Below are positions 5,559 through 64,000 of a stretch of DNA of 64,000 nucleotides, in pieces. How positions within the stretch are numbered: the stretch's first letter is position 1; each line of letters begins with the position of its first letter. The notes below the pieces were generated by a model that was not told the DNA's origin, made no database searches, and saw nothing but the letters and a program-made list of their open reading frames with translations. The DNA is taken from the NCBI RefSeq assembly GCF_006345805.1, contig NC_043013.1, positions 16,492,001 to 16,556,000 on the forward strand. Reading direction: 5' to 3'. The translations under genes and the position numbers were made by a program. Source of the DNA: Octopus sinensis. Lineage: Eukaryota.

Positions 5559-6461
5559 ATGGAAGATTTACAAATGACTACAGCCAATAATGACGCTGAC
5601 ACTTCAATCTTCGGGGATGATACCTTCGGGCGGTTGAATATATTTACGTGTGTCTCGATCATTCTAGTTATCCTGACCAATGCATTTCTGATGATCGCCA
5701 TTTTCCTAGATCGTAAATCTCACGGGAAAACGCGCTCTCTATCATTGCTGAACTATATGTTGAACTATGCATTGTTTGCCTTGTTCATTTATTTTCAGAA
5801 TATTCATGTCTATCGTTTCCGAGATTTGCCAACCTCAACTTGTGCATTTTTTGTGATAACTCATTATGTTCTAGAAGAAGGGTCAAAATATTTCTTATTC
5901 CCTATTTGCTGTGATTTTATCGTGAAATATTTTCTTCCAAGCAAATATGAAAGTCAAAAGTTTTTAACTATCCAGTACGCAATGACAGGGATTTTGTGGG
6001 CCTTTCTCTGGGTACTTTATCTGGCAGTGATGCTGACGCTCAAAAAAGAAAATCCATCTAGTTGTTTTATTTACTTTGAGAATAGTTTCACAACAATCAT
6101 TAATATATTTTCAGTATTTGTGATGATAGCATTGTTAGTGTTTATAGGCGTACTGATCTACATTGCCGTTAGAGGTAAACAATGTGAGATGATGAAATCA
6201 CCATTAAGAACTTTAATCGTTGTTCTTATTTTCGTTTTAATTTTTTGTCTTCAAAGAAACTTGTTTGCTTTGAATATTTTCCCACTTTTTAGCGTTCAGA
6301 TGTTCATCAATTATTGGATTACTTTTTTGGTATGCTTCCTGCTTTTGCCGTTTATATGGCTTTTCGACGCCACTATAAGACAGAGTGTACGGAAATTATG
6401 GCCAGGGAAATGTAAAGAATCTACAGATCACCCGTCGCATGAGAAAACTGAACTCAATTAA
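5559..6461 (+). CDS. Divergent class A-like 7TM receptor, paralog 1 (300 aa)
   Basis: Intact ORF with seven hydrophobic helices; N in TM1, Cys at top of TM3 + ECL2 Cys, CCDFIVKYFLPSKY in DRY register, TM4 Trp, TM5 Tyr, LLPFIW + helix-8-like DATIRQSVRKL; homologous to five other ORFs. Confidence 0.92.
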   Translation: MEDLQMTTANNDADTSIFGDDTFGRLNIFTCVSIILVILTNAFLMIAIFLDRKSHGKTRSLSLLNYMLNYALFALFIYFQNIHVYRFRDLPTSTCAFFVITHYVLEEGSKYFLFPICCDFIVKYFLPSKYESQKFLTIQYAMTGILWAFLWVLYLAVMLTLKKENPSSCFIYFENSFTTIINIFSVFVMIALLVFIGVLIYIAVRGKQCEMMKSPLRTLIVVLIFVLIFCLQRNLFALNIFPLFSVQMFINYWITFLVCFLLLPFIWLFDATIRQSVRKLWPGKCKESTDHPSHEKTELN

Positions 6462-7560
6462 TCGTATATAGTGATGTAAAAAGAGCATTGAATCCTCTTT
6501 TCCTCTTACATAGTAGAATAAATCTTGTCTACAATGTATATACACACATACACATACGCATATACACATACATAAATACGTGCATATACATACATACATA
6601 TATATATATATATATATATATATATTTAAGCAATAATAAATATCAGAGCGAGTTATAAACAGTAGCTACAACACATCGTGACGTATATTTGCCATTTAAA
6701 TATGGCTAACCCCTAAGGGTGGATGCTACTGTAGTCTGTAGCCCCAGGAGGACACCTCCTCCAGCTGGCTATAGACACACTTTCTGCGCCCTCTAATAGG
6801 GCACAGAAAGTGTGTCTATGCAAAATATACGTCACTATATATATATATATATATATATATATATATATATATATATATATATATATATATATATAATACA
6901 TATATATATACAAAAAGGGTGAAATATAATTAATTTAATAAAATTAATAAATTTCACCTAGTAGTTTTATCGGTATGAAAAAGACCATATTTGGTAAGGA
7001 TTATATTAATTATAATAAAGGGTTAATTGCAACAAGTTGCTCAAAACCACATACCGAAAATATTAGAAATGGCAGCCAAACAGGTCACCATTTCTCCTAC
7101 TAGTAAAAAAAGTCTCCACAAACAAACAGAATTTGCAACCCGTATATGGTATATGGTATATATACATATATATATATATATATATATAAATATATATATA
7201 TATATATATATATATATATATATATATATATATATATATATATATATATATATATATATATATATATATATATATATACATATATGCACACACACACACA
7301 CATGTACACACACTCACACTATCACAGACGCATGCGTATGTGAGGATAAACATCATAGAAGAGCAGAATGGAATAAGAAGAGTAGGAGCACACACAAACA
7401 CGGAAACTGTCGATGAGGAGGTCACAGATGTGTGACGAAAGATATCCGGACAATTGACATGAGTTAGAATAAGAACAGTAATAAACGAATGCAAAACGAA
7501 TATATAGTGTGTTTATTTGACAAAACAATAACCGTCCCGAAATCCAACAATATATATATG

Positions 7561-7765
7561 GAAAAAAGTCAAGATAGAAAATACTAAAATAATTTTATAA
7601 AAAACATTTCAGTACCGGTTTAAGTCATTGAGACTTTTTCAACTGTAAGTGTGGAAAACAATTAAATTTTGGAAAAATCAAAAAAAGTCTTTTAAAATGA
7701 TATTTGTATAGTGGTATTTTCCTTGTTTCTGCCTGTCTCTGTCTCTCTTGTTTACTCTTGTGGGT
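7561..7765 (-). mobile_element. PLE-type terminal repeat relic with hammerhead-like motif (7610-7645)
   Basis: Minus strand CAG-TTGAAAA-AGTC/GACT-TAAA-CCGG-TA-CTG; lies between (TA)n tracts; inverted homolog at 4700-4890. Confidence 0.55.
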
Positions 7766-8614
7766 TTGAGGTCGTTGTGTATATATATATATATATATAT
7801 ATATATATATATATATATATATATATATATATATATATATATTATATATATATATATATATATATATATATACGAGAATTTTTTTATTAATCATGCCAAT
7901 TATATATATATATATATATATATATATATATATATATATATATATATATATATATATATACGAGAATTTTTTATTAATCACGCCAATTGTATATATATAT
8001 ATATATATATATGTTGTTGCTGTATTTAGGAATGGTCATTTTGCCAGTTTAGCCAATAAAAACACATGCACTATATATTTGGTGTTAATTTGCTTCAGCT
8101 TTATTTATTTTTTACAATAACCTTAATCTTATTTCAGCCAGAGTTCCTTCGTCACACTTCTGTGACCTCATCAGTGGTCCTTTGCCTTCTTCTTTCTTAT
8201 TTGTGTGTCTCTCCTTACTAACGGTCAGCCATTTTGTATTTTATATTCCTATTTTATGTGTCTTTATTTGCGCATGCGTATACCTCTATGTGTGTCTATG
8301 TTTAGTTAGTGTGTGGGGGGAGTGCCTGTAATATTTGTATCTCCTGTTTATACACGTTGGTGTAATTTGTTTTTGTTTATTTTGTTCATGTGTGCGGCTG
8401 GGTGGTTGTGCCTGCTTCTGTAGGAAGCTATATGTAGGTGTCAAGGATGTATACGTGTATGAATATCTGTGTCGTGGATGTGTATGTACTATATATATAT
8501 ATATATATATATGTATGTATGTATGTATGTATGTATGTATGTATGTATGTATGTATGTATTATGTAGGTGTATATATATATAACCAAGAAAAAAGCAACA
8601 AGAATGGATTAGTT

Positions 8615-8705
8615 GTTCAGTACAATTGTTTCATACGAAGAACAGCTTTATTAAAAGCTGCAAATATTGCAGCAAATACAAGTGTCCCGTATTCATCAGC
8701 CAAAA
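8615..8705 (-). ncRNA. Hammerhead ribozyme-like motif with extended stem II
   Basis: Minus strand CTGATGA-ATACG...CGTAT-GAAA-CAATTG-TA; palindromic stem III, GUA triplet, weak stem I. Confidence 0.5.
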
Positions 8706-8879
8706 CACATGAGTTTTTCCAAACATCCTAGGGGGTGAGGCTACACTCATGAAGTATCGAAGAGAGTTATATGTATATATATATATGTATATATATATAT
8801 ATATATATATATATATATATATATATATATATATATATATATATATATATATATATATATATATATATATATATATATA

Positions 8880-62513: not shown

Positions 62514-62551
62514 CTGTCTGATGAACGGCAACGAGAAACTCAGAGTAACAG
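62514..62551 (+). ncRNA. Type I minimal hammerhead ribozyme motif
   Basis: CTGT-CTGATGA-A-CG-GCAA-CG-A-GAAA-CTC-A-GAG-TA-ACAG: canonical core, GNRA-capped stem II, GUA triplet. Confidence 0.7.
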
Positions 62552-62842
62552 ATTTTGTTGAATTTTCTGCTGCTTAAAATAAAGCATATTACTCTACCAC
62601 TGGTATTTGAGTACTCTTTTTTCCACCTTGTTTCACATTTATGTGTTTACTCCGGTATATATATATATATATGTATGTATATATATATATATATATATAT
62701 ATATATATATATATATATATATATATATATATATATATATATATATTCACGTGTAAGCATGTATGTATGTATGTATGTATGTATCTGTGTGTGTGTGTGT
62801 GTATGTATGTATGTATGTATGTATGTATGTATGTATGTATGT

Positions 62843-63495
62843 TTGTATGGAGAGTTTTATGGAGAGTTAGCTAAAGGAGAACGACCTCCACATAAACCAA
62901 AAAAGAGGTATAAGGACTTGCTGAAGGCTTCCTTAAGAGATACTTGCATCTCTCCAGACACATGGGAAGGCATAGCTATTGATCGTAGCAGGTGGAGAAG
63001 GATTGTGCATGAGGGGACAGCCACGTTTGAGAAATCTCGAGTTGCACATGAGAAAGTAAGGAGTGATGTCAGGAAGGGCATCGCTGTTACACTTCCAGAA
63101 GGGAAGGGTCTTCCTTTGATTCTGACATGCAATGTCTGTGCAAGACCCTGCCTCAGTAAAGCTGGACTCATGAGTCAACTTCGTAGTCATAAAACGAGAC
63201 AGATGAGTGACAACCTGGCCACTGGTGGTGGTGTAACACACCATACTAATCATATCTGTCGGGCATGTGGAAGAGAGTGTAATTCGGCAGGAGAACTTAA
63301 ACGACATGCAAAGGTACATGAAACCCAGTTACAACTACAGCCGGCTATTACCAGTAAAGGTCTTAGTTGCCAATTTTGTACAAGACATTGTAGATCTTTA
63401 GCTGGGCTAAAAAATCACATTCGATCACAGCACCAGTAACAGTTAAGCTTCGTGCAATGGCCATACTCGATAACGAGGGGGCAGCCATAATAATG
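62843..63495 (+). mobile_element. RTE-group LINE 3' end with three C2H2 zinc fingers
   Basis: [27 protein letters not shown]...WEGIAIDRSRWR then CNVC, CRAC..H...H, CQFC..H....H; inserted within (TATG)n. Confidence 0.8.
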
Positions 63496-63733
63496 TATGT
63501 ATGTATGTATGTATGTATGTATGTATGTATGTATGTATGTATGTATGAGTTATAAAATAAGTAGCAGTCAAATACCAAGCACTGAGGTTGTGAGAAGTTG
63601 TTATATCTTGTCCCCTTCTTTTCTTTTGCTCAAAATGTGTTACCTTGTTCTTTCAAAAAAATTTTAAAAAGCTGACATCGATTAATCGGTCTTCTAATTT
63701 CGTTTCAGATTGCAGATTTTCACATCAGCCACA

Positions 63734-64000
63734 ATGGAGGACACTCATATCCCTAACGTTTATGAATACGGAGATATGAATTTTACGGACATGGAACCAC
63801 ATCCAGTAACACTCTCCGGGATGTTTTTGGCTTCTTTAATTTCTGCCATCGTCATGTTCCTGTTCAATGGATTCCTACTGTTTGTCATTGTTCAAGATCG
63901 TTGCTCTTACAGAAAAGCAAAATGCCTGGCTTCCTTAAACTATATACTCAACTATGCGTTTTTTGCTTTGTTTTACTACTTCTATACGGTGCATATCCAT
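63734..64000 (+). CDS. Divergent 7TM receptor, paralog 6 (N-terminal 89 aa, runs off window)
   Basis: Hand translation MEDTHIPNVYEYGDMNFTDMEPHPVTLSGMFLASLISAIVMFLFNGFLLFVIVQDRCSYRKAKCLASLNYILNYAFFALFYYFYTVHIH aligns with TM1-TM2 of the other paralogs; TTTCAG acceptor at ~63703-63708. Confidence 0.88.
   Translation, partial: MEDTHIPNVYEYGDMNFTDMEPHPVTLSGMFLASLISAIVMFLFNGFLLFVIVQDRCSYRKAKCLASLNYILNYAFFALFYYFYTVHIH

Follow-up and report, generated by a model that had tools for sequence, protein, structure and literature searches.

Within a 64,000-nt stretch of the Octopus sinensis genome (NCBI RefSeq assembly GCF_006345805.1, contig NC_043013.1, positions 16,492,001 to 16,556,000; this whole stretch is the window below) lie members 7-12 of a tandem array of twelve seven-transmembrane (7TM) receptor open reading frames (ORFs). 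The family is annotated but uncharacterised; it is real, expressed and rapidly diversifying. As to its architecture, whole receptors are probably alternative last exons joined to a shared non-coding leader exon, with extra local promoters possible. It is very likely that the leader serves several members, and about an even question whether it serves all twelve. An earlier note on this DNA missed this arrangement, in which the ORFs would not be independent genes but would serve, at least in part, a single transcription unit as its alternative last exons.

The receptor array and its probable shared leader exon

Six-frame translation and tblastn reveal six 7TM-receptor ORFs in the window, all on the plus strand, of which five (g1-g5) are complete at 297-305 aa and the sixth (g6) is represented by its start only. 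The start-to-start distances are 11.3, 8.1, 12.3, 8.4 and 18.0 kb, so that the earlier description of six co-oriented paralogs 8-18 kb apart, five of them complete, holds (observed spacing 8.1-18.0 kb), and tblastn finds no further copy inside the window. The idea of a six-gene tandem array was right about tandem expansion but too small, since the window holds half of the array. A genome search yields 13 members in total, 12 of which form a co-oriented array of 140 kb on C17:16,416,839-16,556,669, with six more intact paralogs upstream of the window (G000:C17:16,416,839-16,491,354); the thirteenth, L009, is located on C4 (G000:C4:60,781,011-60,781,925). All 13 paralogs are intact, a 28%-identical outgroup query recovers the same 13 plus two non-significant matches with stops, and no pseudogenes were found across 384 kb. 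The flanking paralogs are annotated as 'uncharacterized' Octopus sinensis proteins.

Each of the 12 array ORFs is preceded, 4-71 nt before its ATG, by a TTTCAG-type splice acceptor with a polypyrimidine tract. Because the acceptor-to-ATG offsets fall in different frames, and because in-frame TGA codons occur in L007, L010, L008, L004, g2 (from its second acceptor) and g4, whatever is spliced to these acceptors is non-coding. The first ORF of the array, L013, additionally contains a 5' splice donor 19 nt past its own acceptor. These two sites delimit a 19-nt exon (G000:C17:16,416,768-16,416,786), flanked by AG and GTAAGC and located 52 nt before the L013 ATG. In the 2.7-Gb genome the flanked pattern of this exon has one exact site and one site with a single mismatch (on C4), with no matches for the controls, and no degenerate flanked copy is present in C17:16.40-16.57 Mb.

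Direct evidence that this exon is joined to a distant receptor comes from de novo contigs of 4 of 24 sequencing runs, which were compared with positions 15560-17940 of the window, covering 1.25 kb upstream of g2 and involving no read mapping; the RNA status of the runs is judged from the spliced junction itself. In run X5, a contig runs on for 158 letters 5' of the first g2 acceptor (before 16814). Thirty of these letters are visible, and the last 18 of them correspond to C17:16,416,769-16,416,786 with one mismatch. The implied intron from the leader to g2 (16815) measures 92,028 nt and passes over seven ORFs. In run X8, which belongs to another study, a g2-type contig ends at the same base as the X5 junction, with 28 loose letters. 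The assembler presumably worked at k=31, in which case a 28-letter overhang is what a de Bruijn branch point would leave; records 19 and 20 of X5 overlap by 30 letters, consistent with this value. A second X5 contig carries 7 loose letters at the second g2 acceptor, which suggests that both g2 acceptors, 33 nt apart (16815 and 16848), are in use. Among the loose ends listed, further ones match the letters of g1 and g4 exactly (runs X1 and X2), so several paralogs are present in the same runs. Positions 16520-16759 have zero cover in all four runs, which is not counted as evidence. The spliced contig also supports expression of the family.

The public annotation points in the same direction. 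Paralogs 1, 8, 4 and 2 have as their orthologs the isoforms X1-X4 of the O. bimaculoides RefSeq gene LOC106869328, and that of paralog 10 is likewise called an isoform in an older RefSeq record; in O. sinensis, isoforms X1-X3 of LOC115220942 are paralogs 4, 2 and 3. For separate paralogs to be named isoforms of one gene, either a shared exon or a mapping error is needed.

The positions of the receptor ORFs and of other features of the window are given in the table.

Features of the window, in window coordinates
Feature	Position	Strand	Remarks
g1	ORF 5559-6461; exon from 5555	+	300 aa; 7th of 12; acceptor-led
g2	ORF 16881-17786; exon starts 16815 and 16848	+	301 aa; 8th of 12; two acceptors
g3	ORF 24969-25883; exon from 24936	+	304 aa; 9th; acceptor-led
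g4	ORF 37287-38204; exon from 37254	+	305 aa; 10th; acceptor-led
g5	ORF 45705-46598; exon from 45682	+	297 aa; 11th; divergent member; acceptor-led
g6	ORF from 63734 past the window edge (64000); exon from 63709	+	311 aa, intact (locus L012); 12th and last
RVT_1 retroelement fragment	40574-42100	-	336-aa ORF
Long interspersed element (LINE)-like tails	8969-9643	-	no Pfam match
ORF ending in C2H2 zinc fingers	62549-63436	+	retroelement fragment just 5' of g6

The long ORFs around the receptor genes are simple repeats or retroelement pieces, and the window has no Rfam matches. Several features of the DNA next to the acceptors are recorded here in their own right. A 33-nt AT-rich unit lies 5' of some of them, in two copies in g3 (24804-24872), five in g4 (37022-37189) and a single one in g2 and in L006; in g3 and g4 the repeats end at a GTAAGT donor-like site. 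L010 and L008 have a short 5' untranslated region (UTR) and an out-of-frame upstream ATG 7 nt before the start codon. At the C4 copy, L009, homology begins at the exon boundary and stops just past an ATTAAA, with a dispersed repeat upstream and no acceptor tract; it has a 79%-identical ortholog, P0016, and is possibly a retrocopy. A putative leader remnant before it was rejected, the upstream DNA being the dispersed repeat. About 157 kb to the left of the array, a serine hydroxymethyltransferase exon on the minus strand (L051:8004-8510; below the Pfam cut-off) offers a usable synteny marker.

One leader or many promoters

A model that would connect these observations is that the family grew by copying only the coding exon together with its splice acceptor. 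The internal donor of the founder exon would have made its first 19 nt a common exon, into which duplicated coding exons were plugged. Whenever the donor is ignored, L013 would be made; whenever it is used, the leader would join one of the downstream acceptors, each of which would yield a different complete receptor with its own ATG and stop. Since duplicated exons would plug into an existing leader, new copies would need no promoter of their own and would be expressed where the leader is active. A stricter version, in which a single promoter drives all 12 and the individual neuron or haemocyte picks one or a few receptors through the choice of alternative last exon, is considerably less probable, and we regard it as improbable in its full form.

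Several observations weigh against a shared leader. The junction of which every letter was read is a single one, in one run; its source is a related species about 94% identical, and its leader exon is placed by the O. sinensis genome position and not by the related species' own. In RefSeq, no fewer than four gene ids are used for the paralogs of O. sinensis, and the g3 and g4 orthologs currently have a separate one (LOC128246974). A donor-like GTAAGT precedes the g3 acceptor by 67 nt and a donor-like site precedes that of g4 by 68 nt, so local exons or promoters may exist. Mis-mapping between paralogs is known to produce chimeric gene models that are false (PMC7055050), which weakens the isoform evidence from RefSeq and leaves the de novo contig unaffected. 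No exon 5' of the 19-nt exon was found in C17:16.25-16.42 Mb that matches the preceding 12 letters of the X5 contig with at most one mismatch and a donor; 3.7 kb upstream of the 19-nt exon the assembly is interrupted by 100 N (at 16,412,920). The sole exact match to these 12 letters genome-wide, on C3108, falls inside a repeat and was rejected as chance. Finally, for 4 of the 12 array ORFs no AATAAA or ATTAAA was found within 800 nt past the stop.

Part of this evidence would fit an ordinary tandem cluster in which each or most genes possess their own promoter and the leader junction represents occasional read-through splicing, as at a few mammalian odorant receptor (OR) loci. The several RefSeq gene ids, the donor-like sites before g3 and g4, and about 0.9 kb of homologous upstream DNA common to L006, g3 and g4 all speak for such a cluster, and seven human and seven mouse OR loci, among about 900-1500 OR genes, provide a precedent with shared 5' UTR exons (PMC7055050). 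However, the observed junction passes seven ORFs and 92 kb instead of reaching one neighbour, no local 5' exon is joined to g2 among the rows listed for the four runs and 1.25 kb of upstream DNA, and five paralogs (1, 2, 4, 8 and 10) have been grouped under one locus; independent promoters are consequently considered rather unlikely as the general rule. Less probable still, and in our judgement a slim prospect, is the joining of the leader in trans, with local promoters and a common exon supplied by another transcript, as established for Drosophila mod(mdg4) (PMC6237743). With trans-splicing, transcription would not have to pass as many as 11 upstream 3' ends along 140 kb, but the 12 exons all have the orientation of the leader and follow it collinearly, as cis-splicing requires, and no pairing sequence was detected between the leader region and the acceptors: a search for Dscam-like docking and selector pairing with the 12 acceptor regions gave nothing above random. 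Splicing of the shared leader in cis is the reading that we favour.

Fold, motifs and diversification of the receptors

An AlphaFold2 model of g2, computed from an 18-sequence alignment, has seven helices plus helix 8 (H8), with a predicted local distance difference test score (pLDDT) of 78.6 and a predicted TM-score (pTM) of 0.78. Foldseek with this model returned 332 Protein Data Bank (PDB) matches at E<=0.001, with G-protein-coupled receptors (GPCRs) of class A in every row listed, and the best VIA-align match is GPR50 (Z 21.8, root-mean-square deviation 2.9, 259 residues aligned). Because many receptors tie with GPR50, the fold singles out no subfamily. The Atlas structure comparison agrees with a GPCR fold (TM 0.76), and the GPCR-type fold suspected from the letters is in this way upheld by the model.

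At the sequence level the relationship is indirect. None of the 13 paralogs matches Pfam 7tm_1 (PF00001) directly, and Pfam searches on them returned no 7tm family, only weak matches due to transmembrane (TM) bias, such as TgpA_N (E 1e-4), which lie below the cut-off and were rejected. A profile of the family reaches P0022 (E 9.4e-05) and P0023, with 9 matches among 1.84 billion representatives; P0022 itself scores 39.9 against a 7tm_1 cut-off of 30.5 and so bridges the family to PF00001, a link to which hhalign gives a probability of 93.8. In addition, 5-HT1D is matched at E 0.037, and the PDB relatives closest to P0022 by sequence are aminergic receptors. Profile and model together indicate that these are class A-derived GPCRs, not canonical class A members. 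Three homolog searches and one profile search found no named characterised ortholog. A plausible local source of the family is a single-copy, 314-aa class A-like receptor that keeps 'DR' and lies 22 kb upstream on the minus strand (C17:16,393,377-16,394,321; L020:1377-2321). It is head-to-head with the array, with which it may share a promoter region, carries its own acceptor directly before the ATG, and is automatically named 5-HT6-like.

Residue numbers were anchored on C3.25 and on the 5-HT1D and P0022 alignments, the register at 2.50 being tentative. The structural scaffold of class A is largely kept: N1.50 in 9/13 paralogs, the disulfide cysteines C3.25 in TM3 and its partner in extracellular loop 2 (ECL2) in 12/13, D/E3.49 in 13/13, the proline of intracellular loop 2 (ICL2) in 13/13, W4.50 in 13/13 and P7.50 in 12/13. 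The residues of activation, on the other hand, are lost. The DRY arginine R3.50 is found in none of the 13, which have F, Y or V instead; neither the Asn (N7.49) nor the Tyr (Y7.53) of NPxxY occurs in any of them, nor does a conserved TM6 W/P (CWxP), and the likely 2.50 position has no Asp and is probably Tyr, within that tentative register. The octopus family therefore shares with class A GPCRs the 7TM + H8 fold, W4.50, the ICL2 Pro, P7.50 and the disulfide cysteines, and differs from them in having no R3.50, N7.49, Y7.53, TM6 W/P or 7tm_1 match. At least three acid-flanked Tyr occur at the N-terminus of 5/13 members, and an acidic Ser/Thr motif is conserved at the C-terminus. Both disulfide cysteines are lost together in g4, where each is replaced by a TAC Tyr codon (37593-37595 and 37815-37817); they are Cys in the 12 other paralogs and in the O. 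bimaculoides ortholog, and the pair may be either a compensated double loss or adenosine-to-inosine editing sites able to restore Cys.

Conservation is unevenly distributed along the protein. Mean pairwise identity among the 13 paralogs reaches 63% in ICL1, 65% in inner TM3 and 57% in inner TM7, and falls to 22% in ECL2, 20% in outer TM5 and 13% in outer TM6/ECL3, so that the contrast noted earlier between conserved inside and variable outside is confirmed over the whole family (57-65% versus 13-22%). The related claim that cytoplasmic motifs are nearly fixed in paralogs 1-4 needs qualification: the motifs are present, but variants occur in g3 (KRR, PSRYE, KSQ), g4 (DRNTHGKTRPL) and g1 (ending in HEKTELN).

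Codon models were fitted with our own code, which reproduces the IQ-TREE M0 likelihood (-9615.48), with relative branch lengths fixed in the site models and naive empirical Bayes posteriors; columns that precede residue 20 or contain more than 2 gaps were left out, and 122 of the 282 columns count as outer. The non-synonymous rate of substitution relative to the synonymous one (omega, dN/dS) is 0.93 in the outer half versus 0.43 in the inner half. The likelihood ratio test (LRT) of M8 versus M8a gives 48.0, with omega 2.16 on 20% of sites, and that of M8 versus M7 gives 76.4; all 24 sites with posterior >0.9 are outer. Uniformly neutral evolution, which would have counted against the receptor proposal of the earlier note, is hence not what is seen. 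The M8 versus M8a statistic is still 28.8 after removal of outer TM6/ECL3, the worst-aligned region, and 41.4 with the six close paralogs alone (28 of 30 sites outer). The outer (ligand) face is diversifying under positive selection; the inner half stays conserved. A caveat to the size of this contrast is that in 7/7 pairs tested the outer half has the higher pairwise synonymous divergence (dS), though over the whole tree dS is 6.2 vs 5.2; some gene conversion or a bias from multiple hits may thus exaggerate the outer/inner difference.

The same tendency is seen between species. Paralogs 1, 2, 4, 8, 9 and 10 have one-to-one orthologs in O. bimaculoides, g6 has orthologs in Argonauta, and other paralogs are matched by further records. 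The family is thus lineage-specific in a loose sense only, given these orthologs and a 28%-identical relative that likewise has no DRY arginine. Members at the array ends evolve slowly (L013 93.7% identical to its ortholog, g6 96.1% to its cluster-mate P0035) and inner members fast (76-88%). Ortholog differences concentrate on the outer face in most pairs, with L007 and g6 as exceptions; between congeners, 42/122 outer residues differ in g3 and g4, versus 8/120 in L013. In Argonauta hians, four near-identical g6-ortholog records (P0019 and P0024-P0026) lie on two contigs, which suggests an independent recent duplication or haplotypes.

Candidate functions and related systems

The receptors would bind different external or fast-changing ligands, and their conserved inner face would engage one transducer, G protein and/or arrestin, along a signalling route that bypasses the DRY arginine and the NPxxY tyrosine. 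Sensory and immune roles appear about equally likely. As to ligand class, an immune or microbial cue and neuronal chemosensation are both tentative candidates, on a par with each other; an endogenous or reproductive peptide seems unlikely, and so, to the same degree, does a non-signalling scavenger, which comes into consideration because R3.50 is lost and the N-termini are acidic and Tyr-rich.

Bitter-taste and vomeronasal receptors signal without DRY, and neuronal chemoreceptors of sucker, olfactory organ and skin are a possible identity for short single-coding-exon 7TM proteins encoded in a tandem array with positive selection on the outer face. Extracellular variability of this kind is also found in lophotrochozoan class A expansions (PMC11886862), but DRY and NPxxY, absent here, are common in those expansions, and a family of 13 members with no pseudogenes found in 384 kb counts against a chemoreceptor repertoire. 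A somewhat stronger candidate, still short of an even chance, is a role in haemocytes or epithelia, where the receptors would detect cytokine-like peptides or products of microbes and might be arrestin-only scavengers comparable to the atypical chemokine receptors (ACKR). Acidic N-termini of the sulfotyrosine type are a hallmark of chemokine and C5a receptors, and the atypical chemokine receptors combine them with an altered DRY. The acidic Tyr-rich N-termini of five members, the loss of R3.50 beside a conserved acidic Ser/Thr C-terminal motif, the very fast congener divergence on the outer face of g3 and g4, and the suitability of one promoter for a panel co-expressed in one cell type are all in keeping with this role. 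Against it, the fold search has no preference for chemokine receptors, and the nearest sequence-level PDB relatives of P0022 are aminergic. T2R bitter-taste receptors have an aromatic residue at 3.50 with Lys at 3.53; the likeness of ACKR and T2R to the octopus family is a resemblance only. With OR, V1R and T2R-like expansions, the family has in common the tandem single-coding-exon array and diversifying selection on the ligand face.

Other GPCR expansions of cephalopods and lophotrochozoans are likewise tandem and lineage-restricted, with a variable extracellular face (PMC6408891; PMC11886862). The former describes four cephalopod expansions selected by Pfam with isoforms removed, and its methods imply that the octopus family would escape on both counts. 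The latter, according to which cephalopods have few expanded class A GPCRs, also applied a 7TM-topology screen and counted 23 expanded receptors in O. sinensis, a number that may include these proteins, although the supplement searched contains no matching ids. Neither paper mentions a shared leader in the parts covered.

A 2003 study reportedly describes splicing over long distances in human OR genes. A shared non-coding 5' exon in front of separate complete ORFs is known from the mammalian OR loci (PMC7055050) and from Drosophila, where 130 genes, mostly gene pairs, share a promoter and 5' non-coding exons (PMC4528330); in the octopus, by contrast, a single diversifying family with as many as 12 paralogs would be involved, across 140 kb. 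As far as promoter use is concerned, g2, the sole member read directly, takes the distant shared exon. The common exons of mod(mdg4) are coding, unlike the octopus leader, which encodes no shared protein domain, since the frames differ and stops lie in frame ahead of the ATG. Both systems have a common 5' exon and alternative 3' exons, the octopus case being based on one junction and isoform naming, but in mod(mdg4) the joining occurs in trans (PMC6237743), and every octopus exon is a whole protein. Ant and bee OR arrays (PMC12393541), protocadherins and Dscam (PMC8787164) are also tandem receptor arrays in need of a choice mechanism; ant ORs and protocadherins choose among promoters and Dscam swaps internal exons, whereas in the octopus family the ORF as a whole would vary, with one leader in front. 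In the literature searched, which excluded subscription papers, a receptor family with whole ORFs as last exons was not found described, nor the six LOC ids of the family mentioned. The parts covered of PMC13724654 and PMC1995454 hold nothing bearing on this family.

Since Pfam does not pick up the family and annotation lumps its members together as 'isoforms', gene-level surveys and single-cell counts would miss it. The proposed architecture amounts to a simple route of expansion, in which an internal donor in the 5' UTR of a founder lets duplicated coding exons use an existing promoter. It makes directly testable how a cell selects among twelve last exons, each a whole protein, along 140 kb; how a class A fold is activated when R3.50, Y7.53 and CWxP are missing can be tested likewise. 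Should the stricter version with one promoter and per-cell choice be true, the octopus would possess a splicing-based one-cell-one-receptor solution for a whole GPCR family, together with signalling that dispenses with all the activation motifs of class A.

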